A stretch of DNA of 64,000 bases from an uncultured Thermoleophilia bacterium. Lineage in GTDB: Bacteria; Actinomycetota; Thermoleophilia; UBA2241. The translations under genes were made by a program, and so were the position numbers. This document shows positions 29,870 through 50,501 of this stretch, piece after piece (within the stretch, counting starts at the first letter, position 1; every line of letters begins with the position of its first letter). A model generated the notes under the pieces. The model searched no databases and was not told the origin of the DNA. It saw only the letters and a program-made list of their open reading frames with translations. The DNA lies in contig CAVPCT010000003.1 in assembly GCA_963702475.1 (NCBI GenBank), positions 608,001 to 672,000 of the forward strand, written 5' to 3'.

Positions 29870-30949
29870 GTGGCAGACCCGACGCTCAGCATCGACGACC
29901 TGTGCACCCGTGCCCTGGCCGGCGAGACCTTGGAGGAGCGCGAGCTCGAGGCGATGCTGGCGGCCGGACCGGCCGACGCCGAGACCGTGTTCGCGGCGGC
30001 GCGAGAGGCGCGCAGCCGGGTCTCCGGCGACTGCATCTTCCTCTATGGCTTCATCTACTTCTCCACGTACTGCCGCAACGCGTGTGCGTTCTGCTTCTAT
30101 CGCGCCGACAACCTCGAGAGCCCGCGGTATCGCAAGTCCCTGGACGAGGTCGTGGCCATCTGCAACGACCTGGCGGGCTCCGGCGTCGTGCTGCTCGATC
30201 TCACCATGGGCGAGGACCCGGTCATCCACGACGAGCCGGGCTACCGGAGTCTCCTCGACCTGGTCTCGGCCGTGCGCCACGGTAGCGGTCTGCCGGTCAT
30301 GGTCTCGCCGGGAGTGGTGCCGGACGACGCGCTCGCCGGCCTCGCCGAACGCGGCGCGGACTGGTACGCGCTCTACCAGGAGACGCACACGCGGGAGCTC
30401 TACGACCGCCTGCGCGTGCACCAGCCGTTCGAGGAGCGTGTACACGCGCGTGACGCGGCGCGTGGGGCCGGTCTGCTGGTCGAGGACGGCATGCTCACCG
30501 GCATCGGCGACACGCCGGCCGATCGTGCCCGTGCTATCGCCTCCATGCGCGACGCCGCCTGGGAGCAGGTGCGCATCATGACGTTCGTGCCGCAGGCCGG
30601 CACGCCCCTGGAGGACGTGGTGCCGGCCGGCGATCTCGACGAGCTCCTCACCATCGCCGTGCTGCGCCTCGCCTGCCCGCAGGCGCTCATCCCGGCCTCC
30701 CTTGACGTGGACGGCATCGCCGGCCTCGAGCGGCGCCTCAACGCAGGCGCCAGCGTGGTCACGTCCATCGTGCCGCCGACGAAGGGGCTCGCCGGTGTGT
30801 CGCAGAGCGAGCTGGACATCGAAGAGGGCTACCGCACCGTGGAGGGCGTGCTGCCGCACCTCGCGCGTCTCGGCCTGCGCGCCGGCACCGTCGAGGAGTA
30901 CCGCGCCTGGCTGGCCACGGCACACGAGCGCGCGCTGGTGCGGGCGTGA
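29870..30949 (+). CDS. pylB: Methylornithine synthase PylB (radical SAM)
   Basis: FLYGFIYFSTYCRNACAFCFYR, DLTMGED, ALYQET, MTFVPQ.GTP, IPASLDVDG..GL..RLNAGA.VVTS. Confidence 0.95.
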   Translation: MADPTLSIDDLCTRALAGETLEERELEAMLAAGPADAETVFAAAREARSRVSGDCIFLYGFIYFSTYCRNACAFCFYRADNLESPRYRKSLDEVVAICNDLAGSGVVLLDLTMGEDPVIHDEPGYRSLLDLVSAVRHGSGLPVMVSPGVVPDDALAGLAERGADWYALYQETHTRELYDRLRVHQPFEERVHARDAARGAGLLVEDGMLTGIGDTPADRARAIASMRDAAWEQVRIMTFVPQAGTPLEDVVPAGDLDELLTIAVLRLACPQALIPASLDVDGIAGLERRLNAGASVVTSIVPPTKGLAGVSQSELDIEEGYRTVEGVLPHLARLGLRAGTVEEYRAWLATAHERALVRA

Positions 30950-32193
30950 GGCTCCTCGTCGTCGGCGGTAAGCTGCAGGGCACGGAGGCCGCGTATCTCG
31001 CCGGCAAGGCCGGATGGGACGTCGTGCTGGTCGACCGGCGGCCGGCCCCGCCGGCCGCCGGTCTGGTGTCGCGGCACATGGCGCTCGACATCACGGCGGA
31101 CGAGCAGACGGCGCGCGCGCTCGTCGCGTCGTGTGACGCCGTGCTGCCTGCGTGCGAGGATCTCGCCACGCTCGAGTGGCTGGCCGCCCGCGTCGAGACC
31201 TGGGGTGTGCCGCTGCTGTTCGACCTGGCAGCCTACGAGGTGACTCAATCCAAGGCGGCCTCCCGTGAGCTCTTCGCACGCCTCGACGTGCCGTTGCCGG
31301 CCCCGTGGCCGGCCTGCGGGTTCCCCGCCGTGGTCAAGCCGGACGCGGCGTCCGGCAGCGACGGCGTGGCGGTGGTCGGCGACGAGGCGGGTCTGGAGGC
31401 GGCCGTGGCGGTGTTGCGCGCGGCCGGCCACCGGCCCGTCGTCGAGGAGTACGTCTGTGGCCCCTCGCTGTCGTACGAGGTCCTTGCGGCCGGCGGCCGC
31501 GCCTGCGCGCTTCAGGTCACCGGCCTCGAGTTCGACGCCGTCTACGACTGCAAGCGCGTGGTAGCGCCGGTCGGGGAGACCGGCCGCGGCGCCGCGGCGG
31601 CGCCGGTGCGCGCCGACGGATCCACGGTCTGGGAGCGCGCCGTGCCCGAGGGCTCGCTGGCGCGCTTCGCCGCCGTCTCCGAGCACCTCGCCCTGGGCCT
31701 GGGTCTCAGCGGCCTGATGGACGTGGAGGTCATGGTCCGCGACGGCGAGCCGCTCCTGTTGGAGATCGACGCGCGCCTGCCCAGCCAGACGCCGACGGCG
31801 GTGTACTGGTCGAGCGGCCTCAACATCCTCGAGGAGCTGTGGCACACGGTCTCCGACGGCGCGCCCCCGTCGGGCGACGCCGTCCCGCGTCGCGCCTGCG
31901 TGTACCAGCATGTCCGCGTCCGCGACGGGCTGGCGGAGGTCTGCGGGGAGCACGTCATGGGCGGCTGCCGCCCGCTGCGCCTCGTATCGGGGTTCTACGA
32001 CGTCGACGAGGCACTCACCGACTACGAGCCCGGCGCCCGTGAGTGGTGTGCTACGCTCATCGTCTCCGCGGCGAGCGCCGCCGAGGCGCGTGCAGCCGCC
32101 GACACCGCGGCGCGCGAGCTCGCGCGTAGCCAGGGTCTCGAGCTCCTGCCCGAGAACGACCAGACCGTCCTTCCCCAGGAGGCGCGGACATGA
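30946..32193 (+). CDS. pylC: 3-methylornithine--L-lysine ligase PylC (ATP-grasp)
   Basis: VGGKLQGTEAAYL, MDVE, EIDARLPSQTPTAVY.SSGLN, GEHVM; GTGA overlap with pylB. Confidence 0.95.
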   Translation: MRLLVVGGKLQGTEAAYLAGKAGWDVVLVDRRPAPPAAGLVSRHMALDITADEQTARALVASCDAVLPACEDLATLEWLAARVETWGVPLLFDLAAYEVTQSKAASRELFARLDVPLPAPWPACGFPAVVKPDAASGSDGVAVVGDEAGLEAAVAVLRAAGHRPVVEEYVCGPSLSYEVLAAGGRACALQVTGLEFDAVYDCKRVVAPVGETGRGAAAAPVRADGSTVWERAVPEGSLARFAAVSEHLALGLGLSGLMDVEVMVRDGEPLLLEIDARLPSQTPTAVYWSSGLNILEELWHTVSDGAPPSGDAVPRRACVYQHVRVRDGLAEVCGEHVMGGCRPLRLVSGFYDVDEALTDYEPGAREWCATLIVSAASAAEARAAADTAARELARSQGLELLPENDQTVLPQEART

Positions 32194-32996
32194 CCAGGCT
32201 CACCGAGGACGACGTCCGCACCCTCACCGAAGACCTCACCGCGTTCGAGTCCGGTCTGCTCGAGGTCGCAGGCTTGGACCTGCGCACCCTCGCGCTGGCC
32301 ACCGTGGCCGACCCCCCGGTCTGCGTACCGTTGCACGGCGCCCGCATCGCCGCGGTGCCAGTGACGTCGGGTGAGGGGGTCATCTCCGGCTTCACGGAGT
32401 GCGTGGCGGTCATCCTGCGCCATCTCGGCTGCGAGGCGTGGGTGACCGGCCAGCCGGACGTGCGCGGCATCCAGCAGGCCGTTACCAGCCGCGCCGAGGT
32501 CGTGTTCCTCGCCGACGACCACCGCTTCATCGCCCTCGACCTGCGCAACGGCCGCTGTGTCGACGACGACCCTGCCACGGCGGACGGCTACGTCACAGCC
32601 CTCGAGGCCGCCGCCGGAGGGCTGTTCGGCAAACCCGTGCTCCTGCTCGGACTGGGCCCAGTGGGCCGCGCCGCCGCGCGTCGCCTCGTGCGCAGAGGGG
32701 CGAAGGTCGAGGTCGTCGAGCCCAACAGCGAGCGCCTGCAGGCCGCCCTCGACATCGGCCTGCACGTCAGGCCCACCACCCTCGACGAGGGCCTGGCGCG
32801 CTGTGACCTGGTCTTCGACGCCACACCGGCTCTCGACATCATCGACATCGCCGACGTGACCGAACGCACCATCGCCGCCGTGCCGGGTATCCCATCCGGG
32901 TTCACGGCCGCAGCGCGCGCGGCCATGGGCCGTCGGCACATCCACGAGCCGCTGGCCGTAGGCGTCGCCGTCATGGCGGCTCGGGCGCTCGCCTAG
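32190..32996 (+). CDS. pylD: Pyrrolysine synthase PylD (ends in TAG)
   Basis: VPVTSGEGVI.GF, DV.G, ADD.RF, AT..GYV.AL, GLGPVG, HEPL.VGV. Confidence 0.93.
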   Translation: MTRLTEDDVRTLTEDLTAFESGLLEVAGLDLRTLALATVADPPVCVPLHGARIAAVPVTSGEGVISGFTECVAVILRHLGCEAWVTGQPDVRGIQQAVTSRAEVVFLADDHRFIALDLRNGRCVDDDPATADGYVTALEAAAGGLFGKPVLLLGLGPVGRAAARRLVRRGAKVEVVEPNSERLQAALDIGLHVRPTTLDEGLARCDLVFDATPALDIIDIADVTERTIAAVPGIPSGFTAAARAAMGRRHIHEPLAVGVAVMAARALA

Positions 32997-33029
32997 ACGT
33001 CACATCGACGGGCGCCGGCGATGTCGTAG

Positions 33030-33035
33030 TACAAT
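33030..33035 (+). promoter_or_regulatory. -10 element for pylT
   Basis: TACAAT ends 10 nt upstream of the tRNA 5' end. Confidence 0.5.
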
Positions 33036-33045
33036 CCGGGTGCGC

Positions 33046-33118
33046 GGGGGGTCGATCGCAAGGATCAGCGTGGACTCTAAATCCACGTAGGCGGGTGTGA
33101 CTCCCGCACTCCCCGCCA
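33046..33118 (+). tRNA. pylT: tRNA-Pyl (anticodon CUA, amber suppressor)
   Basis: Acceptor GGGGGGT/ACTCCCC + G + encoded CCA; D-arm GATC-GCAAG-GATC; anticodon arm CGTGGA-CTCTAAA-TCCACG (CTA at 33077-33079); short variable loop; T-arm GCGGG-TGTGACT-CCCGC without TTC. Confidence 0.97.
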
Positions 33119-33169
33119 GTCTTTCTCTTCTCCGGCTTCTCCCCCCGCGTTGCGGCGGCGCTCCCCGCG

Positions 33170-34105
33170 TCAGGGCGCGAACGTGACCGGGATGCGCACC
33201 TCGTCCTGGCGGGAGCCGTCCTCCATCGACTGGGCGTAGACGATCAGGGTGCCGCGGGTAGCCGAGGTTGTGAACTGCACGGTCTTGCTGAAGTCGCCGC
33301 GCTCCGGCCCCCCGGCCGACGCCTGCACGGGCGTCCTCACGAGCTGCGAACCGCCGGCGTCCTCGAGCTCCGCCATGAACGAGCCCTCGAACACCATGGC
33401 CGTCCCCTCGAGGGCGAACGGGCTGCCGAGCACGGCGCCGACGCCCGGTCGTTCGACGAAGATCGCGGGCTCGAAGTCCCGCCAGTCGGCGCGCTTCTGG
33501 CTGGAGTCCAGCATGAGGCCCTCGCCTCCGAGCTCCGTGAGAGGCTCGCCGTCGATGCGGAAGTCCACCGCCTTCACAGTGGGGTACTGTGTCAGTGTGT
33601 AGACCACCTGCGCCACGCGGGCCTGCATCGCCAGCGAGCCTCCTCCTGAGGCGAACTCGCCTGACAGGTCGACGATGGCGACGCCCCCCTTGATGGTGAG
33701 GCCGAGGAGCCGAGTGCCGGCCGGCACGGCGGAGCTGAGGCCGGCCCCCTGGTCCTCCGCGTTCGGACCCAGGCACAGCGCCGACATCGCGGCGGTGGCG
33801 ACTGCCTCACTGCGCGGCGCCGGCCGCTCGGCCACGCCGAGCTTCTCGCCGCGCAGGAAGTAGACGCGCACGACCATCTCGTCCGCCGCCGCTGTCGCCG
33901 ACTCGCCGGGGGAGGGGGCCGTGGTGGCCGTGACCTGCGTCGGCGCTCCGGGCGAGGCGCTCTCACCGGCGCCCCCGTCCGACACGCCGCAGCCGGCCGC
34001 GAGGGCGGCGCCGAGCGCCACGGCCGCGAGCAGCGCGAGCGCGGCGGCCACGGACCGGCGGCGCTCGCGCCGGCCCTGGGTGCGGAAGCTGCAGAAGGCG
34101 GTCAT
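33170..34105 (-). CDS. Lipoprotein with GerMN and Gmad2 Ig-like domains
   Basis: Lipobox AAGC; VYF, L..GP, VDLS.EF, Q.VYTLTQ; C-terminal GTA.VFEG. Confidence 0.8.
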   Translation of the reverse strand: MTAFCSFRTQGRRERRRSVAAALALLAAVALGAALAAGCGVSDGGAGESASPGAPTQVTATTAPSPGESATAAADEMVVRVYFLRGEKLGVAERPAPRSEAVATAAMSALCLGPNAEDQGAGLSSAVPAGTRLLGLTIKGGVAIVDLSGEFASGGGSLAMQARVAQVVYTLTQYPTVKAVDFRIDGEPLTELGGEGLMLDSSQKRADWRDFEPAIFVERPGVGAVLGSPFALEGTAMVFEGSFMAELEDAGGSQLVRTPVQASAGGPERGDFSKTVQFTTSATRGTLIVYAQSMEDGSRQDEVRIPVTFAP

Positions 34106-34188
34106 GGGCACCTCACCCGATAGACGGAGTCCTTCCCTTCGGGACGCGCCAGCCTCCTCCTGCGCTCGGTGGTACACTTCACGTCCCC

Positions 34189-34515
34189 ATGCCGACCGAT
34201 CCCAACAAAGCGCGCTACTACCGCAAGCAGATCCCGCTTTTCAGGCTGCTTGAGAAGATGAAGCTGTGGCCCTCGCGGCGCGGCATCCTGCACGGCATCC
34301 GCGAGATCACCCTGCGCGGCGAGTACGCCATCATCGTGACCCACTGCGGCAAACACATGGTGGTGCGCGATTCCAAGACGAGCCGCGCCGCGCGATGGCT
34401 GCGCAACAAGTGGTACGCCGAGGCGTGTCCCAAGTGCCGCATCCCGGAGTGGAAGCTCCAGAAGTACGCCTCCACGCACTTCAATCGGGGCTACGGCTCT
34501 CACCTGAGGGACTGA
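34189..34515 (+). CDS. pylSn: Pyrrolysyl-tRNA synthetase N-terminal subunit PylSn
   Basis: KMKLWPSRRGILHGI, THCG, SRAARWLRNKW, CPKCRIPEWKL (Zn ligands). Confidence 0.96.
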   Translation: MPTDPNKARYYRKQIPLFRLLEKMKLWPSRRGILHGIREITLRGEYAIIVTHCGKHMVVRDSKTSRAARWLRNKWYAEACPKCRIPEWKLQKYASTHFNRGYGSHLRD

Positions 34516-34573
34516 ACGACGAAGGGGGCTCAGCGAGCGGTGCGTCGCAGGCGCGCCCGTCGATAGGCTCCGG

Positions 34574-35453
34574 CTACAGCAGCCGCCAGCTCTCCGGCCG
34601 CAGCCGCATCGATTCCGGAGCAGTGAGCACCCTGTCCAGCGTGGCCAGCATGGCCGCCTTTTCCTGCGGCAGGCGCCCTCCCACGGGCAGATAGTTGGAC
34701 GCGTGGTTGCTTCGGAAGAGGCAGTCGGTGACCTCAGTGGCCGCGACGATCTCGCGCAGTTCGCGGAGCATGCCGAGCGAGTCCGGCAGCACCACCTCGC
34801 CGCGCGCCACCTTGCGCTCCATGGCGGTGCCCGGCGTGAGCATGAGCGTGAGGATGCCGATGTACCGCGGGTCGATGGCCGAGAGAGCCACGCCCGTGGC
34901 TCGCGCGTGCACGAGCGAGCGCTCTGCGCCGGCGAGGCCGAGGATGGCCGTGACGGACAGGGCGATGCCGGCCGTCGAGGCCCGCACGCAGCCCTCGATC
35001 TGTTCGCTCACCGTCATGCCCTTGTGGATGTGGGCCAGGGTCTGGTCGTCGCCCGACTCGAGGCCCAGGTAGATGAGCTCGAGGCCGTTCGCGCGGAGTG
35101 TCACCAGGTCCTCGGACGCTCTTCGCCAGCAGGTTGCGGGCGTTGGCGTAGGTGCTCACGCGCTCCAGGTTCGGCAGAGCCCGGTGCAGCAGATCCAGGA
35201 TGTCGTGCAGTTTGTGCGGGCTCAGTGCCATGGCGTCGCCGTCGGCCAGAAAGACCCGGTCCACACGGTTGCGCACCGTGGAGGGGAGACCCAGGACGTC
35301 GTCGACCACCTCGTCGAACGGTCGCACGGCGAACGGCTTCTCCAGATAGGTGCCGCAGAAGTCGCAGGTGTTGTTGGAGCAGCCGTACGTGACCTGCACG
35401 ATAAGACTGCTGGCCTCGCTGGGGGGGCGGATGACGGCGCCGTGGTACCTCAC
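34574..35453 (-). CDS. Radical SAM protein of unknown function, split by a +1 frameshift at ~35114
   Basis: RPPSEA.SL..QVT.GCSNNTCDFC, FLADGDA, then Y.GLESGDD, FRSNHASNYL; extra base in gtc-C-gag. Confidence 0.85.
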
Positions 35454-35482
35454 GTTCCCGATGCTACCAGAGCGGTCGCTCT

Positions 35483-35527
35483 TGTGCGGTGCCGCACATT
35501 TACGCTCACACGCGCGACTGGTAGACT
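35483..35527 (+). promoter_or_regulatory. Palindromic operator and promoter between the divergent radical SAM and corrinoid genes
   Basis: TGTGCGG-TG-CCGCACA (35483-35498) abuts TTTACG-17-TAGACT. Confidence 0.55.
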
Positions 35528-35651
35528 GCAGCCGTCGCGGAAGGGGGTGGCGACGGCGCGCGTCTCGACACGGCCTGGGCGTGCACCGGGCGTGCGAAGC
35601 GCCCCTCGCCTCTCCGGTCCCACAACGGCCGTCACAGAAGGAGCCCCACGC

Positions 35652-36284
35652 ATGGCCACCATCTACGAAGAAGCAGCCCAGACCATCGTCGACGCCGACC
35701 GCGCCGCCGCCGAGGAGGTCGCGAAGCGCGCCCTCGGGCAGGGCCTCGCGCCCGCCGACATCATGCAGAACGGCTTCGTCAAGGGTATCCAGGAGGTCGG
35801 CGAGCTCTTCGAGAGCGGCGAGGTCTTCCTCCCCGAGCTGATGATGAGCGCCGACGCCATGGCCGGGGCCACCGAGGTCACCAACGCCGCCCTGGAGGGC
35901 GAGGCCGCCGCGGCCAAGGGCGTGATCGTGATCGGCACCGTGCAGGGCGACGTGCACGACATCGGCAAGGCCATCGTCATCGCCTACCTGAAGGCCAACG
36001 GCTACGAGGTCCACGACCTCGGCCGCGACGTGCCCGCCGACGCCTTCCTCACCAAGGCCGCCGAGGTCGGCGCGAACGTGATCGGCATGAGCGCCCTGCT
36101 CACCACCACGATGGAGGAGCAGAAGAAGGTCATCAAGCGCGTGCGCGAGGAGGGCCTCGCCTACAAGTGCGTCGTCGGCGGCGCCCCCGCGACGCAGCGC
36201 TGGGCCGACCAGATCGGCGCCGACGCCTACGCCGAGGACGCCTCCGACGGCGTCAAGAAGATCGACGAGCTGCTCGGCGTCTGA
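35652..36284 (+). CDS. Methyltransferase cognate corrinoid protein (MtbC/MttC family)
   Basis: GEVFLPEL cap, GTVQGDVHDIGK (DxHxxG), SALLTTTM, VGGAP, GADAYAEDA. Confidence 0.95.
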   Translation: MATIYEEAAQTIVDADRAAAEEVAKRALGQGLAPADIMQNGFVKGIQEVGELFESGEVFLPELMMSADAMAGATEVTNAALEGEAAAAKGVIVIGTVQGDVHDIGKAIVIAYLKANGYEVHDLGRDVPADAFLTKAAEVGANVIGMSALLTTTMEEQKKVIKRVREEGLAYKCVVGGAPATQRWADQIGADAYAEDASDGVKKIDELLGV

Positions 36285-36311
36285 GCGTCCCGGGAAGCCC
36301 CTGAGGGGCCG
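36256..36311 (+). repeat. Left copy of a 56-bp imperfect direct repeat
   Basis: 50/56 identical to 49482-49537, with a 23-bp exact core ACGAGCTGCTCGGCGTCTGAGCG. Confidence 0.9.
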
Positions 36312-36319
36312 CAGAAGCG

Positions 36320-36359
36320 CGCGACGAAGGGCGGGCCGGGAGGGCCGCCCTTCGTCGCG
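36320..36359 (+). terminator. Stem-loop after the corrinoid gene
   Basis: CGCGACGAAGGGCGG...CCGCCCTTCGTCGCG. Confidence 0.55.
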
Positions 36360-36389
36360 TACGCCATTCGTGCTGTGTACCATCGGCGC

Positions 36390-36569
36390 GTGAACGAGTG
36401 GGACGACCGGTTCGACTACTACCGTGACAGCCCGACCCATGCGCTCGGCGCCGACCTCGACCAAGTCGTGGCCTGGTGCGAGTCGGGACCCGGTGTGGCA
36501 GCGCTGGACGTGGCCTGCGGCGGCGCCCTCCTTGGACATGCGGCCGATGCGCGCCGGCGTGCTCCCTGA
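36390..36569 (+). pseudogene. N-terminal fragment of a class I SAM-dependent methyltransferase
   Basis: Y.DSPTHA.G.DL...ALDVACGG motif I, then truncation next to IS remnants. Confidence 0.6.
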
Positions 36570-36599
36570 CGGGCACTCCTGAGGATTGAGGCGAAAGTA

Positions 36600-37120
36600 G
36601 CCGACCGGCCGGCGCGCCGCGGCAAAGCGGCGCTAATCACGTTGACGCCGGAGACTGTCACCAGGCGGTGGGATCTCAGGTGAGTCCAGGGCTGCGCGGG
36701 CGCTGTCCCTCTCGAGAATACCGAGCTGGCCAGCGAGGAAGTCGAGCACGCGCAGACAGGCGTCTACCGTCTCGCGCTTGTCGCCGGGCAGCTCGAGGCC
36801 CGTGAGCCAGCAGCGCCCGTCCGCGCCGAACGGATCGCTCACTGGCGGGGCGCCCTTCAGGTTGTGGCAAAGGGTGGCGGAGATCTCGTTCTTGAGGCAC
36901 GTGCGCTGGCGGCGTAGGTTACGGGTCTTCTCGCCCGGCAGCAGGGCGCCTTGCAGCATGCCGGCCGCCAGCAGCTTCGCCAAGGCGCGCATCGAGGCGG
37001 TCGGTCTTCGCGTTGGCGACGGCGAAAGCGTGCGGCTCGCGCGCACCGGCCACTGCCACTCGTCTGACGTGAGGCGCGAGAATGCGCGCGATGGCGAGGG
37101 CGTTGCCGTTGGTCTCCTGG
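36600..37120 (-). mobile_element. IS110-family transposase remnant (frameshifted)
   Basis: Fragments in different frames: GNALAIARIL.PHV, TDRLDARALAKLLAAG, RT.LKNEI, L.TV.GV. Confidence 0.7.
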
Positions 37121-37128
37121 AAATCGTT

Positions 37129-37450
37129 TCACAATGACGCTCGCAGTCGCCGGAAGCAGATCAGGCAGCAAGCCAGTTCGAGGAAGGCCTCGTGTACGTC
37201 GGCGCGCCGCTCCTAGCGCACGAGCAGGCGGCGGAAGCCGTGCAGCCAGGCGATGGTGCGCTCGACGACCCAGCGCTGGGCACCGAGACCGGAGCCGCGA
37301 GAGGTGCCGCGCCGCGCGATTTGCGGGGTGATGCCGCGCGCTCGCAGCCTGCGGCGGTAGGCTTCGTGGTCGTAGCCGCGGTCGGCGAGCAGACGCCGGG
37401 GGCGCAGCGCAGCCGGGGCCGCACCCCTACCGCCGCCGGTGATGGCGGGC
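37129..37450 (-). mobile_element. IS5-family transposase C-terminal remnant
   Basis: LLADRGYDH...RARGITPQIARRG...RWVVERTIAWLHGFRRLLVR*ERRADVHEAFL; internal TAG at 37213-37215. Confidence 0.85.
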
Positions 37451-37916: not shown

Positions 37917-37969
37917 TTGCGTCTCGCCGAGAGCTCTGTATGATGCCGGCATAACCGAACGGTTGGTTA
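37917..37969 (+). promoter_or_regulatory. Promoter and TetR-like operator of the island operon
   Basis: TTGCGT-16-TATGAT followed by palindromic TAACCGAACGGTTGGTTA. Confidence 0.55.
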
Positions 37970-38026
37970 CGCGCCGGCGTGGTCGGCAGGCCCCAGACCG
38001 CCCGCGCAGACAGCACAGGAGGATGT

Positions 38027-40821: not shown

Positions 40822-40861
40822 GGCCGGACCACCGAGTATGGAGCAAGGAGACGGGGGACTC

Positions 40862-42230: not shown

Positions 42231-42941
42231 GTGTCCCTGAGTCTGCAGAACGTCACTCAGCGGTTCGGCGCACTGGCCGCGGTGGACGACGTCAGCTTCG
42301 ACGTGGAGAAGGGTGAAGCGCTGGGCATCGCCGGCCCCAACGGGGCCGGCAAGACGACGCTCTTCAACACGATCTGCGGCTTTCATCGCCCCGAGGGCAA
42401 GATACTTCTGGACGGGATCCGACTCGACAGTCTCCAACCGCACCGCGTCTGCCGGCTGGGCGTGGCCAGGACGTTCCAGATCCCTGCACCGTTCGATTCG
42501 ATGACTGTGCGGCAGAACGTTGAGGTCGGCGCCGTCTTCGGTGGTGGCAGCCATCGGAGAGAGGCCATGCACGCGCGAGTCGACGAGGCGCTGGACCGAG
42601 TGCACATGCTGGAGAAGGCTGAGTCGCCTGTCCGCACGCTCAAGCTCTACGACAAGAAGCTGGCGTTGCTGGCGGCAGCTCTCGCTACGGGTCCCAGCGT
42701 CCTTCTGCTTGACGAAGTGGCTGCTGGATTGAGCGCTGTGGAAATGAAGGAGTTGTTCGAGCTCATACAGCATCTCAACCGCGAGGCTGGCCTGACCCTG
42801 CTGGTCATCGAGCACATCATGAGCATCCTTACCGGGCTGTGCGATCGGATCCTCGTGATGAACGATGGAAAGGTGCTCGCCATCGGTGAGGCGGACGCGG
42901 TCATGGCCGATCCGGACGTGAAGGAGGCTCTGCTGGGATGA
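42231..42941 (+). CDS. ABC ATP-binding subunit (LivG-like)
   Basis: GPNGAGKTT, LLLDE, IEH. Confidence 0.9.
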   Translation: MSLSLQNVTQRFGALAAVDDVSFDVEKGEALGIAGPNGAGKTTLFNTICGFHRPEGKILLDGIRLDSLQPHRVCRLGVARTFQIPAPFDSMTVRQNVEVGAVFGGGSHRREAMHARVDEALDRVHMLEKAESPVRTLKLYDKKLALLAAALATGPSVLLLDEVAAGLSAVEMKELFELIQHLNREAGLTLLVIEHIMSILTGLCDRILVMNDGKVLAIGEADAVMADPDVKEALLG

Positions 42942-43666
42942 GCATGCTCGAAGTCGAGAGCCTCAACGTCAGCTACGGTGATATCCAGGTCATTCGCGAC
43001 ATCAACCTCACGGCAGAAGAGGGCCAACTGACGGCCATCTTCGGACCGAACGGGCACGGCAAGACCACGCTGCTGAAGACCATCTGCGGTCTGGTGACCC
43101 CGACGTCAGGCACCGTGCGCGTCGACGGCGAGGAGTTCCAGGGTCGCCCGTCGGACCAGCATGTTGATCGAGGCATTGTCCTTGTTGCCGAGGAACGCCA
43201 CCTCTTTTCGGAGATGACCGTGATGGAGAATCTCCAGCTTGGTGCGTTCTCGCGTGCCGCTCGCGCCGCCGAGGATGCCAATCTCACCCGCGTGTTCGAC
43301 ATGTTCCCAAAACTGGCCGATCTGCGTCGGCGGGAGGCCGCGACACTCAGCGGCGGAGAAGCGCGGATGCTCGCCATCGGAAGAGGGCTCATGTCGTGCC
43401 CGCGACTGTTCGCGGTCGACGAGCCGTCATTCGGGCTCGTTCCGAAGTTGCGCCACGTGGTCTTCGACTCCCTGCGCCAGTTGGCAGATGGCGGCTTGAC
43501 CGTGCTCGTCGTCGAGCAGTCGACGGCGCGGATCTCGGAACTCGCGGACCAGGTGTATCTGATCGAAGACGGGGCAGTCGTGTTTGGTGGCGATACAGCA
43601 GCGGCGCTGCAGAACGAAGAATTCAAGCGCGTCTACCTCGGCCAGGGGCCGGGAGGTGAGGAGTGA
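42938..43666 (+). CDS. ABC ATP-binding subunit (LivF-like)
   Basis: GPNGHGKTT, LSGGE, DEPS. Confidence 0.9.
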   Translation: MSMLEVESLNVSYGDIQVIRDINLTAEEGQLTAIFGPNGHGKTTLLKTICGLVTPTSGTVRVDGEEFQGRPSDQHVDRGIVLVAEERHLFSEMTVMENLQLGAFSRAARAAEDANLTRVFDMFPKLADLRRREAATLSGGEARMLAIGRGLMSCPRLFAVDEPSFGLVPKLRHVVFDSLRQLADGGLTVLVVEQSTARISELADQVYLIEDGAVVFGGDTAAALQNEEFKRVYLGQGPGGEE

Positions 43667-44547
43667 GCTGGCGATCCCTTGGTGACGTGTTGATCAGCGG
43701 TCTGACCATCGGCAGCGTGTACTACCTGATGGCTCTCGGATTCACGCTCGTATACGGCGTTGGCCGCGTGCTCAATCTGGCCTACGGGTCCTTCTTCGTG
43801 TGGGGAGCCTACGTGTGCTGGGTGTTCACGGTCGGCGTCGCCACCTTGCCCATAGTCGTGGGCGGCCTTATTGCAGTCCCCCTGCTCTTCTTGCTTGGCG
43901 TGGCCGTTGACCGGGGTGTGGTGAATCCGCTGCGGAAACGGCCGGAGTTCGACTTCAGCGTCCTCCTGGCGACCCTGGGCCTTGCCATGGTTCTGGACAA
44001 TCTGGCGCTCGTCATCTTCGGACCGCGGCCAAAGGCGCTGCCTGATTTCGGCAGCTGGAGCCTGGAGGTCGGAGGCTTCGTGCTCAGCGCGCAAGCACTC
44101 ATCATCATTGCGTTCGCCGGCGCCTTTGCCTTCGCACTGACGCTGTTTCTGCAGCGCACCAAGACGGGCATGAGCATCCGCGCGGTCGCCCAGGATCCGA
44201 CAGGGGCGCGCATGGTCGGCATTCGGCTCAACCACGTGTACGCCCTGACGTTCGGTCTGTCGGTCGCCTTGGCCGCTGCCGGAGGGATTCTCCTGGCGCA
44301 GCGGTTCTTCATCACGCCACTGGGCGGCTGGACCATTCTCATCAAGGCTCTCATCATTGCTGTAGCTGGAGGCATGGGGAGCCTGAAGGGGACCCTGGTG
44401 GCCGCCTTCGCTCTGGGCATGCTCGAAGCGTTCGTGGGCTGGCAGGCGGGGCTTCTGTGGGTGATGCCCTTCTGGTTCGGAGTCCTTCTCGCGATCCTGC
44501 TCACAAGGCCTCACGGACTGTTCGGGGCAGCGGGGAGGCGGGTGTGA
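43663..44547 (+). CDS. ABC permease (LivH-like)
   Basis: ALGFTLVYG..LNLA.G, IRAVAQD, GGMGS. Confidence 0.9.
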   Translation: MSWRSLGDVLISGLTIGSVYYLMALGFTLVYGVGRVLNLAYGSFFVWGAYVCWVFTVGVATLPIVVGGLIAVPLLFLLGVAVDRGVVNPLRKRPEFDFSVLLATLGLAMVLDNLALVIFGPRPKALPDFGSWSLEVGGFVLSAQALIIIAFAGAFAFALTLFLQRTKTGMSIRAVAQDPTGARMVGIRLNHVYALTFGLSVALAAAGGILLAQRFFITPLGGWTILIKALIIAVAGGMGSLKGTLVAAFALGMLEAFVGWQAGLLWVMPFWFGVLLAILLTRPHGLFGAAGRRV

Positions 44548-45551
44548 TACGCAGGCGCGCATACGTGCTCGCTGGTTGCATCGTTGCCATTCTGGCCGTG
44601 CTGCCGCTGATAGTGGGCAACGACTCGTACATGATGAGACTCCTTCTGATCAGCATGTTGTGGGGCGGACTGGCCCTGTCGTGGGATCTGCAGCTCGGGT
44701 ATGCAGGGATCTTCAACTTGGGCCAGATCGGCTTCTTCGTGTGTGGTGCGTACGCGTCTGCGATGCTGACCATGTACGTCGATATCTCCCCGTGGCTCGG
44801 CTTGGTTGTAGGGGCGGCGGTCGGCGGTCTCATCGCAGCTGCCATCGGCGTGGCGTGCCTTCGCCTGACGGGTATCTACATCGCTCTGCTCACGCTGGCT
44901 TTCTTTGAGGTGCTTGGCCCCCTGCTCACCCTGGGGAAGCCGTGGGGGACCGGGGGGAAGGCTGGGCTCCTGCCCATACCGCCTTTGAGTTGGGGCGGTC
45001 AGCCATTCTCGGTCTATGACCCGCTGCCGTGGTACTACTGTGCCCTTGGACTCCTCGTGGTCTGCATGGTCGTGGTGGTATGGGTCGTCAGGTCGCGACT
45101 GGGCCGTGGATTCATCGCCCTGCGCGACTCCGAGTCGCTGGCACAAGCCCTGGGAGTCGACCGCTTTCGCTCCTCGCTGGCGGTAGTAGGCATATCCGGC
45201 GCGCTGGCGGGGATGATGGGAGCTTTCTACGCCAGCTACCAGGGAGTCCTCTCGCCACGCCTGCTCGGACTCGACCTGTTCCTCTTCCTGATCATTGCGA
45301 TCCTCGCAGGCGGCGTGGGCAAGTTCCCAGGGGCAGTTCTGGGAGCGATAGCGGTGACGTTCGTCACGGACAGTCTGCGCCCCACCGGGACCTACCGTCT
45401 CTTGATCCTCGGGGGGCTCGTCGTCGTTCTGGTGCTGTTCCTTCCTGCCGGTGCGATGGGCGGTCTGGATTCGGTGATCCTGCGCATCAAGCGCTGGCGA
45501 AGAGGAGGCGTACAACCCCCGGTCGTGGATGTCGATCCGAAGGAGCCATGA
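44544..45551 (+). CDS. ABC permease (LivM-like)
   Basis: GYAG..NLG, GAYA, LRL.G.Y.AL.TL, SRLGR..ALRD. Confidence 0.9.
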   Translation: MIRRRAYVLAGCIVAILAVLPLIVGNDSYMMRLLLISMLWGGLALSWDLQLGYAGIFNLGQIGFFVCGAYASAMLTMYVDISPWLGLVVGAAVGGLIAAAIGVACLRLTGIYIALLTLAFFEVLGPLLTLGKPWGTGGKAGLLPIPPLSWGGQPFSVYDPLPWYYCALGLLVVCMVVVVWVVRSRLGRGFIALRDSESLAQALGVDRFRSSLAVVGISGALAGMMGAFYASYQGVLSPRLLGLDLFLFLIIAILAGGVGKFPGAVLGAIAVTFVTDSLRPTGTYRLLILGGLVVVLVLFLPAGAMGGLDSVILRIKRWRRGGVQPPVVDVDPKEP

Positions 45552-45734
45552 TGGCGCGGAGCGTACTGAGGCACGTGCGGCCCGCGCATCTGGGTGTCAT
45601 CTCATCCGCTCACGGCGACCGGTCGATACCGCGATGAGTCCGGAGCGTTTCACTCCCCGGCGTGAGCCTTGAACTGCCAGGGTCGGCGGGGAGTCTCGCC
45701 ATGGAGCAAATGTAGCCTTGGGGTGTGACGAGCG

Positions 45735-46688
45735 ATGCTCACCGTCACCCTTGGTCTGACGGCGGCGTTCTGCTACGCCCTCGTCGACCTTCTGATGGTG
45801 CGAGTCGTGCGCACGGTGCCCGTGGCATTGGCGTTGGTGTGGCTGGTCGGTGTCGGCGCGCTCATCAGTGTGCCGCTGGCGCTCTTCGTGGACGGGGTCC
45901 CGAGTGGCAGCGCGGAGTGGCGCGGGGTCGGCATCGCGGCCATCGGCGGAGTCACGTACATGGCCGCGTTGGGGGCGATGTTCCGCGGGCTGGCGGTAGG
46001 CCAGCTGTCCATCATGTCGCCGATCACCGCGCTTGAAGGCGCGTTCGCGGCGCTGGTGGCCATCGTGCTCGGCGAGCAGCTCGGCGGCCTGGCGGCCGTG
46101 GGTCTGCCGCTCGCCGTGATCGGCGCCGTTCTGGCGTCGATTGTGCGAGTGTCGGCCGAGCCGGCCGTCGCGATGACGTCTGCGGTCGAGGTCGCCCAAG
46201 CCGAAGGCGGCTCCTGCGGCGCGAACGCCGGCACCCGGGACGAGAAGGGCGGCCGTGCACCCGGTGCCTGGGAGGCCGCCCGCGGCGCCGGCTGGGCGTT
46301 ACTGGCGGCCACGGCGGGCGGAACCACCATTCTCATCTACGGGTGGGCCGCCGACCTGCCGCCGTTCTCGGCTGTGGCCATGTCCCGCCTGGTGAGCTTC
46401 CTCATTGTGCTTGCCTACGCGGCCACGCATCAGGGCCTGGCTCTGCCGCGGGTGTGGCGCCCGCGGGTCGTTTTCGCAGGCTGTGTCGAACTGGCAGCGT
46501 TCGTGGCGCTGGCGGCCTCCACCGCACGTGGCCCCGTGTCGGTGGCCGCGGTGACGACCGCTCAGTTCGCCACGTTTGGCGTCATTCTGGGAGTTCTGAT
46601 ACTGCACGAACGCCCGCTCCTACAGCAGCGTGTGGGCATCCTCGCCACCCTGGTGGCCGTGACGCTGCTCGCCCTCTCGGAGGTATAG
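45735..46688 (+). CDS. EamA/DMT family transporter (ends in TAG)
   Basis: Two 5-TM repeats, LGE and LHER ends. Confidence 0.8.
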   Translation: MLTVTLGLTAAFCYALVDLLMVRVVRTVPVALALVWLVGVGALISVPLALFVDGVPSGSAEWRGVGIAAIGGVTYMAALGAMFRGLAVGQLSIMSPITALEGAFAALVAIVLGEQLGGLAAVGLPLAVIGAVLASIVRVSAEPAVAMTSAVEVAQAEGGSCGANAGTRDEKGGRAPGAWEAARGAGWALLAATAGGTTILIYGWAADLPPFSAVAMSRLVSFLIVLAYAATHQGLALPRVWRPRVVFAGCVELAAFVALAASTARGPVSVAAVTTAQFATFGVILGVLILHERPLLQQRVGILATLVAVTLLALSEV

Positions 46689-46743
46689 GCCGCCCGGGAG
46701 AGGCCCCGGGGCGGCAGACAAGTCAACCACTGGAGAACTCTCT

Positions 46744-47439
46744 ATGTGCGCCGCAATCGACAAGAACCGGACAGCAGTGCTGGATTCCGAAGCGGGAGCG
46801 GTCCGGCACGCGCCGTTCGAGGATCCATCCCTCACCCTGCCTGAGCCTGCCAACGAGATCGTGCAGGCGGCGCGCCGCCTGCTGCTGCTCGGCGGTTGGG
46901 AGGCCCTGCGCGTCGACGCCATCGTTCGCGAGGCTGGCAGGAACAAGGCCTCGGTGAAGTACTACTTTGGCAATAAGCAGGGCCTCATCACCGCCCTCAT
47001 CGACTCGCTTGACCACGAGCAGTGCCTCGCCTTGGCCGAGCGCACCGCCGCAGCCGACGGGGAAGAGCGCCTCAGCCGCTACATCATCGGACAGACCGAG
47101 CTTGCCAGCGACGCCGAAGCGTTTCTCCTGTTCTTCGATGTCCTGCCGCACGTGATTCGCGACGAAGAGCTGCGCAGGCGAGTAGCGCCACTCTATGAGT
47201 GGTACCGGCATATGAACATGGTGTGGCTGGGCCTCACCGACAGGGTCACCGACGAGAACCGGGACCGCCTCAGGGCGTTCGTCGCACTGATGGTCGCGGT
47301 GGTGGACGGGCTGGCCATCCAGGCGTCGCTGCAGCCGGAGGATTTCGACGTGGCCGCCTCTTTTGACATCCTTGAGATCTTCCTCAAACGCTGCCTTGAC
47401 GAGGTGGTCACGGGAACTGCTGATGGCGCCGCAAGTTGA
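46744..47439 (+). CDS. TetR family regulator (paralog of 16281-17000)
   Basis: HTH ..VKYYFGNK; shared LPHV..D.ELR.RVA.LY.WYR motif. Confidence 0.88.
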   Translation: MCAAIDKNRTAVLDSEAGAVRHAPFEDPSLTLPEPANEIVQAARRLLLLGGWEALRVDAIVREAGRNKASVKYYFGNKQGLITALIDSLDHEQCLALAERTAAADGEERLSRYIIGQTELASDAEAFLLFFDVLPHVIRDEELRRRVAPLYEWYRHMNMVWLGLTDRVTDENRDRLRAFVALMVAVVDGLAIQASLQPEDFDVAASFDILEIFLKRCLDEVVTGTADGAAS

Positions 47440-47580
47440 CGTGACGCCTGAAGACGGTCTACTCGCGGGCCATGGTCCTGGATTGAGAAGGAGGAGGTCA
47501 GTCATGCCCAGAAGCGCTACCGCACCGAGGAGCTCTTCGCCAAGCTGGGCGAGGCCGAGCGGTCGGGATTGTCGCCTCAT
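47440..47580 (+). mobile_element. Possible IS3-like left-end remnant
   Basis: AGGAGGAGG RBS, then frameshifted MP.KRYRTEELFAKLGEAE resembling an IS3 orfA start. Confidence 0.3.
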
Positions 47581-47689
47581 GCGGTCGCGCCCGCCGACAC
47601 GGACGGGGCGACGAAGAGGATGGCCACCGTGCATCTCAATGAATCCCCTCTGTGGGTCTAGCGCCCCGCGCATGAGCAGACGCGGCCAG

Positions 47690-47941
47690 TCCCAGCCCAA
47701 GCTGATCGACCGCCGCGTGCTGGAGGAGTGGGCTGCCGCCGGCAGCACGGACCTCCACCAGCGCGCGCAGGAGGAGGCGCGTCGCATCCTCGCGACGCAC
47801 GCCCCGGAACCGCTGCCGGACGCCGTGGCGCGCGAGATTCGCGGCATCGTCGACGCGGCCGACCACGAGGCGGCGTCGACGATGAACAGGCGGCGCCAGA
47901 GGGCACCGAGGAGCCTCGCCACGCCCTGCCGTGCGCGCTGA
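47690..47941 (+). pseudogene. C-terminal remnant of a trimethylamine methyltransferase (MttB family)
   Basis: PKLIDRR..EEWAAAGSTDL..RA.EEARRILATH.PEPLPD is the typical MttB C-terminus; the rest is missing. Confidence 0.75.
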
Positions 47942-47976
47942 CCCAGCAAGGTAAGCCACCCAGGGAGAATCCGAAG

Positions 47977-49365
47977 ATGGAGAACAGCTACCCGACGCGT
48001 GACGGCGACGGATCGCTCGTGCGCATGACTCGCGGCCAGCTTCACTCAGAGCTGGAGGAGGGGACGCAGGCGGCGGCAGCGCGCGCCAAGGTCCCGCCCC
48101 TGACGACGGACGAGCTGGACCACCTGCTCGACATCTGGGCGTCTCCGGCTCGCTTCTCGTCCGTCGACATCGGTGACGAGGTCGTGCTCACGTACGACGG
48201 GTCGGGCTCGAAGACGGTCGGCACGCGCACGCAGGACCTGCTCATCTACGAGCAGATGATGGGCGCCGACTCCGTGGAGCTCGCGCACGTCGACTACTCG
48301 TTCAAGGCCGTCAAGACCATCCTTCCGCACGAAGCGCAGAACATGAAGGACGCCCAGCTCGTCCTGACGGCGCCGATGATGTACGGGGCGATGCCCAACC
48401 TGGGGCTGTACTCCCAGCCGGATGGGCCCGTGCCCAACTGGTCGGAGCTCCTGCCGATGACGAAGATCGCCGAGGCGCGTGCCGCCCAGGAAGAGGCGAT
48501 CGAGCACGCCGTCAAAGACATGGTCGCGGTCGCCGACGCTATGTGGGAGGCGGGCGCCGACGGGATCGACTTCGACACCGCCGGCGCCGCCGGCGACGGC
48601 GACCTCCTGGCGACGCTTCGCGCGGTCGAGAAGATTCGCGCAAAGCATCCCGACATGGGCATCGAGGTCGGCATGGCCGGCGAGTTCGTCCTCGGCGTGC
48701 ACGGTCAGCTCGAGTACGACGGCGTGCGCCTGGCCGGGCTCTGGCCTCGCGCCCAGATGGAGCTCGTGCGCCGGGCGGGCGCGACGATCTTCGGCCCCGC
48801 GGTCAACGTGAACACGCGCAAGTCGGGCGCCTGGAACATCGCCCGGGCGCTCACCCTGGTCAAGCCGTGCATGGATGTCGCCGAGATCCCCGTGCACATG
48901 AACGTCGGCATGGGCGTCGGCGGCGTCCCGATGAGTAGCTACCTGCCGCTGGACGCCGTGTCCCGAGCATCCCGTGCCTGCGTCGACATCCTGCGGCTGG
49001 ACGGTCTGTAGGTCGGCACGGGTGATCCTCTGGGCATGCCTTGTGCCCACGCGATCGCCTCGGGGATGTGCGGCATGCGCGCTGCTGGAGATCTGGTGGC
49101 GCGCATGCAGATCACTCGGGGGATGCGGATACATGAGGCCAAGGCCTACGTGGCCGAGCGGCTGGGGGTCGGTCCGTCCGACCTCTCCGACCCGCTCGCG
49201 ATGGCGGACGTGCGTAGGCACCATCAGCTGGGACGCATCACGACGTTCGAGATGAGCTACGCGAGCGAAAGTAGCGCGATGGAGTCGAAGTTCCGGATTG
49301 CCGAGCTGCTCGACCTCCCGATCAACTGCGTGCAGCGCTTCAGGCGGCACGCCGGGCTCGCGTGA
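47977..49365 (+). CDS. mtbB: Dimethylamine:corrinoid methyltransferase with pyrrolysine at codon 345 (TAG 49009-49011), 462 aa
   Basis: TRDGDG, DYSFKAVK, YGAMPNLGLY, DTAGAAGDGD, MGVGGVPM, DGL-[TAG]-VGTGDPLGM..AH..ASGM.GMRAAGDLVARMQ; homology continues in frame past the amber codon. Confidence 0.95.
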
Positions 49366-49481
49366 GCCCGGACGACCGGGGACCGGGAACGATCTGCTGA
49401 AAGGGATCGGCGTGCATACAGGCGCCGCGCGACCGCGGCTACTGAGAGCGGGATGTGGTATAGGCAGGAGGTGGAGACTCG

Positions 49482-49537
49482 AGAAGATCAACGAGCTGCT
49501 CGGCGTCTGAGCGGCCCGGCAGGCCCGTAAGGGGCCG
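49482..49537 (+). repeat. Right copy of the 56-bp repeat (orphan corrinoid-gene 3' end, KINELLGV*)
   Basis: 50/56 identical to 36256-36311. Confidence 0.9.
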
Positions 49538-49643
49538 GCCGCCCGCCCGGCCTGTCAGATGCAGAGCGGCGCTCCTGCGGCGCTCCGCTCAAGACCCCCA
49601 CTCGCGCCGCTCGGCCGGGCTGCGCCGCCCTTGACGCGCTGCG

Positions 49644-50501
49644 TCAGATATTGAGGCGGACGCCGTCGAAGTACGACAGGCTACGGCCGGCGCGCTCGAT
49701 GTTGGGAAAGCCCTCGCGGACCATGATGAGCCTCTCCAGGCCGAAGCCCAGGCCCACCCACGGGTCCATGACGCCCCAGTTGCCGTCCAGTGGGTGCGGG
49801 CCCATGCCGGCCGAGCACACCTCGATGCCGCCGACCTCGACGTCGATCATCTGGCCGTACACCTCGGACTCGGTCCTGACCAGGTCGTACGTCTTCACGC
49901 CGGCGGCGTCCATGACCACGGCCGCGAGCTCCGTCATCCGCTCGCGGCATCTCTCCTCCGGCGTGCCGAGTTCGACCAGGTTCAGCATGGTGAACTCGTT
50001 GAGGTGGCTGGACCCCTTGCTGTCACGGCGAAAGCACGGCCCGATCTCGTAGATGCCGAACGGACGGCCCCACATACGACCCAGGCGCCTCAGCATGGTG
50101 TACAGGTTGGGCGCCAGCATGGGTCGCAGGCAGCGGCCGTCCTCGAGCCAGAAGACCTGCTCGCGCAGGGGGTGACCGTGCTCGATGCCCATTCTCGTCA
50201 GCGATTCGGCGGCGATGATGAGCGGCGTGACCATGGGCACGAACCCGGCGGCGCCGAGTGCTTCGCGCAGCGCCGCCTCCAGCTCGAGCAAGCGAGGCGC
50301 CACTGCGCCCCCCTTCAGGTCTTTCAGGTGGCGCCGCCCGGCGCGCACGAGCTTGTCCTCGGCGGCGCGGAACGCGGTGTCGCGCTCCCCGGCGTCCGCG
50401 AAGGTGGCGTCGGCCAGCTGACTTGCACCGCCGAGCTCGCGCAGGCGCTGCACCTGGGTCGCCGAGAGGCGCACGCCTCCCGAGTCTGTCTGTTCACTCA
50501 C
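49644..50501 (-). CDS. pylSc: Pyrrolysyl-tRNA synthetase catalytic subunit PylSc
   Basis: QVFW, CLRPMLAPNLY, EIGPCFRRDS.G..HLNEFTMLN, VYG, GFGLERL, RSLSYFDG. Confidence 0.96.
   Translation of the reverse strand: MSEQTDSGGVRLSATQVQRLRELGGASQLADATFADAGERDTAFRAAEDKLVRAGRRHLKDLKGGAVAPRLLELEAALREALGAAGFVPMVTPLIIAAESLTRMGIEHGHPLREQVFWLEDGRCLRPMLAPNLYTMLRRLGRMWGRPFGIYEIGPCFRRDSKGSSHLNEFTMLNLVELGTPEERCRERMTELAAVVMDAAGVKTYDLVRTESEVYGQMIDVEVGGIEVCSAGMGPHPLDGNWGVMDPWVGLGFGLERLIMVREGFPNIERAGRSLSYFDGVRLNI

Follow-up and report, generated by a model that had tools for sequence, protein, structure and literature searches.

Three questions are raised by a 64,000-nucleotide stretch of the genome of an uncultured Thermoleophilia bacterium (contig CAVPCT010000003.1; the whole stretch is hereafter "the window"): whether the pyrrolysine (Pyl) genes that it carries form a working system, how long the lineage has held them, and whether their scattered arrangement is a property of that lineage. 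The contig that holds the window measures 1.14 Mb and is one of nine that make up the 4.3-Mb draft genome. We consider it very probable that the stretch encodes a working, vertically inherited Pyl system of the bacterial type in an anaerobic, methylamine-demethylating member of the Thermoleophilia, a reading drawn from gene content, gene order and comparison with relatives. An initial annotation of the window had reported pylB, pylC, pylD, a tRNA(CUA), pylSn and pylSc as intact, in the order BCD-T-(GerMN lipoprotein)-Sn with pylSc some 15 kb away on the other strand. All of these components were recovered in that order, with the GerMN gene on the minus strand, the proteins above the cut-offs of the Pyl hidden Markov models, and a pylSn-pylSc gap of 15.1 kb between opposite strands. 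Open reading frame (ORF) lists made with translation table 11 are crowded with spurious frames at the ~0.70 guanine-plus-cytosine (GC) content of this DNA; reading frames were chosen by GC content at third codon positions (GC3) and then tested against family libraries, and the cut-offs quoted for NCBIfam models are the curated equivalog cut-offs. The core components are as follows.

29870-30949, plus strand: pylB, radical-SAM (S-adenosylmethionine) methylornithine synthase (TIGR03910, 435.6 bits, cut-off 348.2)
30946-32193, plus strand: pylC, ATP-grasp 3-methylornithine--lysine ligase (TIGR03909, 323.8 bits, cut-off 248.3; PF02655)
32190-32996, plus strand: pylD, dehydrogenase, with a TAG stop (TIGR03911, 209.6 bits, cut-off 150.05; PF21455)
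33046-33118, plus strand: pylT, tRNA-Pyl with anticodon CUA (ARAGORN)
34189-34515, plus strand: pylSn, tRNA-binding small subunit of the pyrrolysyl-tRNA synthetase, PylRS (TIGR03912, 126.5 bits, cut-off 51.15)
49644-50501, minus strand: pylSc, catalytic subunit of PylRS (TIGR02367, 314.3 bits, cut-off 178.15)

All five proteins (PylB, PylC, PylD, PylSn and PylSc) score above their equivalog cut-offs, and none is interrupted by an internal stop. The match of pylB spans profile positions 3-347 of 347 in TIGR03910, and the gene begins at a GTG preceded by a GAGAGGAA ribosome-binding site. The best solved relative of PylSc, a separately encoded class II catalytic subunit, is 3dsq/2zni, which we take to be the PylSc of Desulfitobacterium hafniense, at 312 bits in an end-to-end alignment, compared with ~230 bits for the archaeal ΔPylSn class and ~187 bits for the Methanosarcina class. 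PylSn aligns to the solved N-terminal domain of PylRS (5ud5) and retains the Cys/His metal site (HCGKH...CPKC). The pyl genes have a GC content of 0.72-0.73 against ~0.70 in the surrounding DNA, and their GC3 is likewise host-like, in keeping with the host-like codon style described in the initial annotation. The gene set is complete and looks functional. By family membership, PylB, PylC and PylD would turn two lysines into pyrrolysine, the split synthetase PylSc + PylSn would charge tRNA-Pyl(CUA), and this tRNA would compete with release factor 1 (RF1) at UAG.

The putative decoding tRNA is the sole tRNA that ARAGORN reported in the window. In its cloverleaf (-34.8 kcal/mol), a single base separates the acceptor stem from the D stem, the D loop has 5 nt and lacks GG, the T loop lacks TTC, and the variable region measures 2-3 nt; the discriminator base is G, and CCA is encoded. 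A one-base acceptor/D spacing, a small D loop that lacks G18G19, the missing TΨC and an extremely short variable loop are among the atypical traits of tRNA-Pyl listed in PMC3941956, and pylT fits this shape. Compensatory changes at two stem pairs (6:64 and 29:37) occur among 23 homologues, and tRNA-Pyl is present in 22 of the 24 related loci that were scanned for tRNAs.

The UAG codons that matter for this system would be those inside methylamine methyltransferase genes. The initial annotation had pointed to a Pyl client in the window, and the gene in question is indeed an mtbB, whose frame contains a single TAG at the canonical position:

47977-49365, plus strand: mtbB, dimethylamine:corrinoid methyltransferase, with an in-frame TAG at 49009-49011 (residue 345)

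With this TAG read through, mtbB matches TIGR02368 at 469.7 bits (cut-off 369.1) over profile positions 4-464 of 466, and PF09505 at 584 bits. A match to Rfam PYLIS_2 at 49009-49108 (75.5 bits, gathering score 36) has its first base exactly on the TAG; we use it as a marker for a TAG at the homologous codon only, making no claim of an insertion element, and a PYLIS_2 match was found in all eight mtbB copies tested, one of them a fragment. Genome-wide, mtbB has seven matches of near full length, all of them with a single TAG, and further fragments besides. The MttB superfamily has 75 matches, of which 13 are near-full-length with a single TAG and ~45 are full-length without one, and MtmB has five matches, one with a TAG and four without. 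At least 21 methylamine methyltransferase genes (7 mtbB, 13 mttB and 1 mtmB) therefore hold a UAG to be read as an amino acid. The methyltransferase repertoire as a whole is very large, and many of the copies are clustered on contig C4 of the genome. A corrinoid-protein gene of the cognate type is also found in the window:

35652-36284, plus strand: methyltransferase-cognate corrinoid protein, MtbC/MtgC-like (TIGR02370, 217.8 bits, cut-off 215.3; PF02310, PF02607)

The window also contains folate one-carbon genes (formate-tetrahydrofolate ligase, a cyclodeaminase-type domain protein and FolD), which fits transfer of the methyl groups to folate.

How long the lineage has carried this system can be judged from its distribution. 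PylSc was found in 81 of the 89 species genomes of the order (a single family of 11 genera), including 29 of the 32 high-quality genomes and all 11 genera. In a class-level sample of 401 genomes, it occurred in 72 of 79 genomes of the host's own family, 9 of 61 of a second family and none of 260 from ten other families. A phylum-level sample, also of 401 genomes, yielded PylSc in this genome and one from the second Thermoleophilia family only, with none found among the sampled genomes from other classes of the phylum. PylSn and PylB are distributed in the same way as PylSc: each was detected in 24 of 41 genomes, and for each the genus contributes 22 positives out of its 24 other species genomes. 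Relatives' PylSc sequences at 64-73% identity belong to records of uncultured Thermoleophilia or Actinomycetota bacteria, one of them Thermoleophilia bacterium UBA2241; two such relatives sit on records with other phylum names, which are probably mislabelled. Host genes that flank the cluster, namely AFOR and nitroreductase next to pylB and amidase, OsmC and HTH next to pylSc, are conserved on both sides in 20+ relatives. Because PylSc is order-wide, the flanking host genes are syntenic and the composition is host-like, the pyl system is, by these comparative signs, long-resident in the lineage, as the initial annotation had proposed.

Recent horizontal acquisition, in which a compact Firmicute or Desulfobacterota cassette is now breaking up in this genome, would agree with the resemblance of PylSc to the solved bacterial PylSc and with the view, expressed in PMC11764691 and PMC3941956, that Pyl reached bacteria by transfer. 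A further point in its favor comes from a genome of the second Thermoleophilia family (locus L051, G032:C12:42000-56000), in which the genes are arranged otherwise and compactly, as pylT-pylSn-pylSc-pylB-pylC-pylD, and are accompanied by two mtbB genes and by corrinoid genes. Its tRNA-Pyl (72 nt) diverges strongly from that of the window and its PylSc is 49% identical to the window's, so that more than one acquisition is possible; the L051 system may be a separate acquisition, which would make one or two acquisitions within the class. Recent transfer into the present genome is nevertheless very unlikely in view of the presence of PylSc throughout the order, the two-sided synteny of host genes across relatives whose PylSc is only 64-73% identical, and the match of the pyl genes to the host in GC and GC3; the only recently moved DNA is a 13.2-kb block with mtbB, described below, and not the pyl genes themselves. 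A binning or assembly artefact that joined foreign pyl genes to an actinobacterial contig has the estimated contamination of the draft on its side, and can be given next to no weight when the window lies inside a long contig alongside gltX, cysS, gatA and folate genes, over 20 relatives with assemblies of their own show this layout again, and short-read contigs of four runs cover the cluster.

Within this order, the trait also appears to have been lost in places. Two near-closed genomes of the same genus, G060 and G061 (1.7-1.8 Mb, 98% complete), have neither PylSc nor mtbB, and their MttB copies are free of TAG. This looks like genome reduction in which the code expansion and its client genes went together, a coherent joint loss.

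The separation of pylSc from the other pyl genes has a more local history. The window proteins were compared by tblastn with 33 related loci, 24 of which were the ones scanned for tRNAs. On contigs that are long enough, the relatives' order is AFOR - nitroreductase - pylB - pylC - pylD - pylT - GerMN(-) - pylSn, followed by radical SAM(-) - corrinoid protein(+) - (SAM methyltransferase) - pylSc(-) - amidase(-) - OsmC - HTH, and the distance from pylSn to pylSc is 0.05-3.6 kb, mostly 2-3.6 kb and as little as 50-100 bp in G007, G010 and L031. The ancestral arrangement in the family is, judged from this shared order, one ~8-kb pyl cluster. In the present genome, the cluster is interrupted by the following features.

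36312-49478, plus strand: strain-specific inserted block, recognized by its Pfam content, low GC and absence at this place in relatives
36285-36569, plus strand: class-I SAM methyltransferase gene, N-terminal remnant (tblastn with an intact relative stops at residue 92 of 259)
36253-36311, plus strand: 59-nt direct repeat, left copy, comprising the last ten codons of the corrinoid gene and its 3' flank
49479-49537, plus strand: 59-nt direct repeat, right copy, a relic of another corrinoid-protein gene (its final 10 codons)

By Pfam, the block encodes a saccharopine-dehydrogenase-like protein, an aldehyde dehydrogenase, a five-gene ATP-binding cassette (ABC) transporter, EamA and TetR proteins and the mtbB described above, and its GC content drops to 0.62-0.65 at 40-46 kb. 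No counterpart of the 36.3-49.5 kb stretch was found at this place in any relative compared. The methyltransferase gene that it truncates is intact in a relative (L049:9710-10489, PF08241). A repeat search found the two 59-nt copies to be 88% identical and spaced by 13226 nt; the right copy reads ...EKINELLGV-stop just after mtbB. Since both copies are 3' ends of corrinoid genes, the repeat fits recombination with a second mtbB-corrinoid unit. As to the origin of the block, a DNA search with 9.5 kb of it against the genus's 53 other species genomes gave only paralogue-level matches, at 64-69% over single genes.

Direct evidence for the uninterrupted state comes from run X1, in which a 1692-nt contig (10 differences in 959 nt over pylSc) joins position 36354 to 49642, skipping 13,287 nt. 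The contig bridges the block, and a near-identical strain without the block therefore exists. Contig joints with one short side (e.g., 31232 to 49143, one side with 21 letters) were set aside as noise from repeats or other organisms. The 15-kb gap is a single genome-specific 13.2-kb insertion and not a lineage trait. In the sequence of events that we favor, recombination confined to this genome would have placed the lower-GC block, with its transporter, dehydrogenase, regulator and mtbB genes, where the corrinoid gene ends, and the block would have pushed pylSc 15 kb away. The initial annotation had described a dispersed system; the comparison with relatives upholds its inference of long residence, given the shared flanking host genes, and overturns the dispersed layout as a property of the lineage, in which pylSn and pylSc lie 0.05-3.6 kb apart. 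More generally, a "dispersed" layout seen in one genome may stem from one recent insertion, and calls for caution.

Two further genes lie inside the cluster, between pylT and the corrinoid gene:

33170-34177, minus strand: GerMN/Gmad2 lipoprotein, between pylT and pylSn (PF10646, 86.6 bits; PF10648, 68.5 bits)
34577-35453, minus strand: radical SAM gene of no named family, in two frames, split by a one-base frameshift near 35114

The GerMN/Gmad2 protein has a signal peptide and an LAAGC lipobox, probably starts at an ATG at 34105, and keeps its position in relatives. The radical SAM gene, which sits between pylSn and the divergently transcribed corrinoid-protein gene, is intact in a relative (292 amino acids, L049:7911-8789, minus strand; PF04055, 56.8 bits; CSNNTCDFC motif) and is 75-89% identical among relatives. 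Base 35114 of the window is extra: it is missing in the short-read contigs of all three runs that cover the site (X1, X2 and X3), and the frameshift is therefore probably an error of assembly, or else private to the strain.

These damaged genes bear on whether the system could be a decaying or silent remnant, with UAG decoding no longer supported in this strain. The frameshifted radical SAM gene, the truncated methyltransferase gene nearby and the fragmented mtbB and MttB copies elsewhere in the genome would agree with decay. Neither of the two damaged neighbors is a pyl gene, however, and the base behind the frameshift is the one that all three covering runs lack; moreover, the six core components are full-length, above cut-off and free of internal stops, and at least 21 clients keep a single TAG at the expected place while remaining otherwise open. 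We consider decay improbable, with only a slight chance of being correct, and regard the system as intact.

The conserved position of the radical SAM gene made it a candidate for a Pyl-specific accessory, which we reject. Its orthologues are confined to the two Thermoleophilia families that have Pyl systems, with 67 of 79 genomes in the host's family, 41 of 61 in the second and none of 260 in other families, and the second-family count compares with only 9 of 61 for PylSc; an accessory role is further ruled out by the absence of the gene from the Pyl-positive genomes G007, G010, G068 and G071. A PDB search gave no match for the protein, no NCBIfam model exceeded its cut-off, and Atlas clusters were labelled only "radical SAM protein"; weak partial matches were to the radical-SAM halves of B12-dependent methyltransferases.

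If UAG is decoded as pyrrolysine, it remains to ask what becomes of UAG as a stop. The gene for RF1 (prfA) is present (477 bits, cut-off 423). Among 2973 ORFs called genome-wide by a crude GC3-based caller, 2430 end in TGA, 445 in TAG and 98 in TAA, and at least 21 of the TAG ends are Pyl codons. The open frame continues for a median of 58 codons beyond TAG ends and 57 beyond TGA ends. As candidates for Pyl proteins other than methyltransferases, 88 TAG-ended ORFs have a coding-like in-frame continuation, which is mostly just the next gene in the same frame. Because RF1 is present and TAG ends ~15% of genes, UAG is, as far as gene content indicates, ambiguous and not reassigned, as in known Pyl bacteria; it would stay an ordinary stop for many genes, hence ambiguous decoding.

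Full reassignment of UAG to pyrrolysine, a bacterial counterpart of the archaeal code in which every TAG is Pyl (Kivenson et al., preprint 10.1101/2024.09.30.615893, as cited in PMC13695967), might be suspected from the large number of Pyl genes and from the use of TGA as the stop of almost every gene in the window. Against it stand RF1 above its cut-off, the 445 TAG ends in the crude calls and the equal lengths of open frame past TAG and TGA. The share of TAG among gene ends in 0.4-Mb samples is also no lower with Pyl than without it: ~39% (69/178) in the Pyl-positive G007, for which one sample had a low coding density under the filter used, compared with 24% (68/285) in the Pyl-negative G061 and 22% (65/292) in G004. 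Of these two comparators, G061 is the only clean Pyl-negative control, G004 being excluded for its TAG-containing mtbB/mttB. Finally, the pyl genes themselves are often TAG-ended in the related loci (pylSc in 17 of 33, pylD in 8 of 24 and pylSn in 2 of 24), as is pylD in the window. Full reassignment is thus exceedingly improbable, and ambiguous decoding is the reading that we retain. Avoidance of TAG as an adaptation to Pyl was likewise rejected on the crude stop counts.

With ambiguous decoding, an active suppressor would give the TAG-ended pyl proteins C-terminal extensions, and control of the suppressor becomes of interest. Directly upstream of pylSc is the following gene.

50498-51652, minus strand: N-acetylmuramoyl-L-alanine amidase with two peptidoglycan-binding domains (PF01520, PF01471)

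The start of pylSc overlaps the amidase stop by 4 nt, and the pairing is kept in nearly all related loci. This conserved overlap suggests that pylSc may be co-transcribed with a housekeeping-type amidase gene, and hints that expression of the synthetase could be constitutive and not induced. A scan of 29.6-37.0 kb for promoters and terminators gave no promoter-like and one terminator-like site, no more than in shuffled sequences. Candidate limits on read-through are methylamine control of pylT/pylBCD combined with constitutive pylSc from the amidase operon, and selection on UAG context. That the lineage limits UAG read-through in a way not yet described for bacteria, with an order of 80+ species as committed Pyl users, is a speculative proposal that we think more likely wrong than right by some distance; if true, it would make the order the largest and most tractable bacterial clade in which to study life with an ambiguous codon.

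Other genes in the window lie farther from the cluster. At 4-9 kb upstream of pylB (20986-25676, plus strand) are a homocitrate synthase (TIGR02660, 534 bits, cut-off 462.9), a homoaconitase-family large subunit (TIGR01343, 533 bits, cut-off 385.7) and an isocitrate/homoisocitrate-type dehydrogenase that falls below cut-offs. These three genes could serve 2-oxoacid elongation or an alpha-aminoadipate route feeding lysine, the precursor of pyrrolysine. Translation genes at 17462-19261 and 59041-62387 (both plus strand) comprise gatA (TIGR00132, 612.7 bits), a gltX-type gene and cysS; the initial annotation had put forward GltX, CysS and GatB for classifying the contig, and the amidotransferase gene found is gatA, not gatB.

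Several observations weigh against the reading of a working and inherited system. Expression of the genes and the presence of Pyl in protein are predictions from sequence; a search of sequencing runs listed none of RNA, and one run guessed to be RNA (X20) was left out of the evidence. The tRNA carries no match to the general tRNA model of Rfam at the gathering score, and the anticodon stem contains a C26-A40 mismatch in 3 of the 23 tRNA-Pyl homologues. The draft is 93.8% complete with 6.5% contamination, and its assembly probably has a single-base error in the pyl cluster in at least one place; several mtbB and MttB matches elsewhere in it are in pieces, so that it probably holds other single-base indel errors, and some "intact" calls rest on imperfect sequence. 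The stop-codon counts come from the crude gene caller and not from a real annotation. The joint in the X1 contig has up to ~130 unaligned letters, which places the exact ancestral junction beyond its reach. Lastly, G004, of the same genus and 93% complete, has TAG-containing mtbB/MttB genes and no pyl genes were found in it, which is most simply an assembly gap.

The initial annotation had placed this system in a lineage where it is poorly characterized; a very high novelty does not hold up against the literature. Of the 81 bacterial genomes with PylRS in Guo et al. 2022 (PMC9630628), "two Actinobacteria" are counted, and supplementary files 2 and 3 of that paper give PylSc of Thermoleophilia_bacterium and Actinobacteria_bacterium_ADurb.BinA094, with the PylSn column empty in these rows. 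Actinobacteriota metagenome-assembled genomes are reported to express Pyl-encoding mttB/mtbB in a thawing mire (Ellenbogen et al. 2023, PMC10805028). The provisional order UBA2241 was described as anaerobic Thermoleophilia by McDaniel et al. 2020; no mention of pyrrolysine was found in the passages of that paper that were read. Full-text literature searches, which leave out supplements, found no description of the gene order or of the order-wide spread. The novelty is modest: the lineage is already on record as pyrrolysine-encoding, and what is added is the presence of PylSn and the extent of the trait across the order.

The finding nonetheless extends the Actinomycetota record: where Guo et al. 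2022 had two PylSc genomes in which no PylSn was found, there is now a complete, syntenic system throughout an order. Genetic code expansion gains a further PylRS/tRNA-Pyl pair, of high GC, and these uncultured anaerobes of the Thermoleophilia emerge as likely to consume tri-, di- and monomethylamine in soils and sediments, where they would rival methylotrophic methanogens for methane precursors.

Among known systems, the PylSc entries of Guo et al. 2022 are of the same lineage and family, with pocket residues N, V, Y, G and W that agree by eye with motifs in the window's PylSc; those rows hold PylSc only, whereas here PylSn occurs in 24 of 41 genomes and PylSc in 81 of 89 of the order. Methanosarcina MtbB/MtbC share with the present genes an mtbB above the equivalog cut-off, a TAG at the start of the PYLIS match and a cognate-type corrinoid protein nearby. 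Borrel et al. 2014 (PMC3941956) place mtbB "almost exclusively" in Methanosarcinales, whereas the host here is a bacterium without methanogenesis, with folate one-carbon genes in the window and at least seven mtbB paralogues. Acetohalobium arabaticum, with a pylSn-pylSc-pylB-pylC-pylD cluster and substrate-induced Pyl decoding (PMC3941956), is a possible model for tolerating an amber suppressor alongside many TAG stops, and the second-family locus L051 shares its compact order. Unlike that induced system, pylSc here forms an operon-like pair with a housekeeping-type amidase gene, a hint of constitutive expression.

According to Borrel et al. 2014 (PMC3941956), bacterial clusters usually run pylTScBCDSn or pylSnScBCD and can be interrupted; neither order was found here, the window and the genus showing pylBCD-pylT-(x)-pylSn-(x,x)-pylSc(-). 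With the Desulfitobacterium hafniense type (pylT-pylSc-pylB-pylC-pylD-pylSn in PMC3941956), our system has in common the same six components with separate PylSn and PylSc, a tRNA-Pyl whose D loop is short, which lacks GG and TΨC and whose discriminator base is G, and a UAG that is still a stop in the presence of RF1. It differs in that pylT follows pylD and does not lead the cluster, pylSc lies on the opposite strand behind an amidase gene, lipoprotein, radical SAM and corrinoid genes are conserved inside the cluster, and the host is an actinobacterium of 70% GC.

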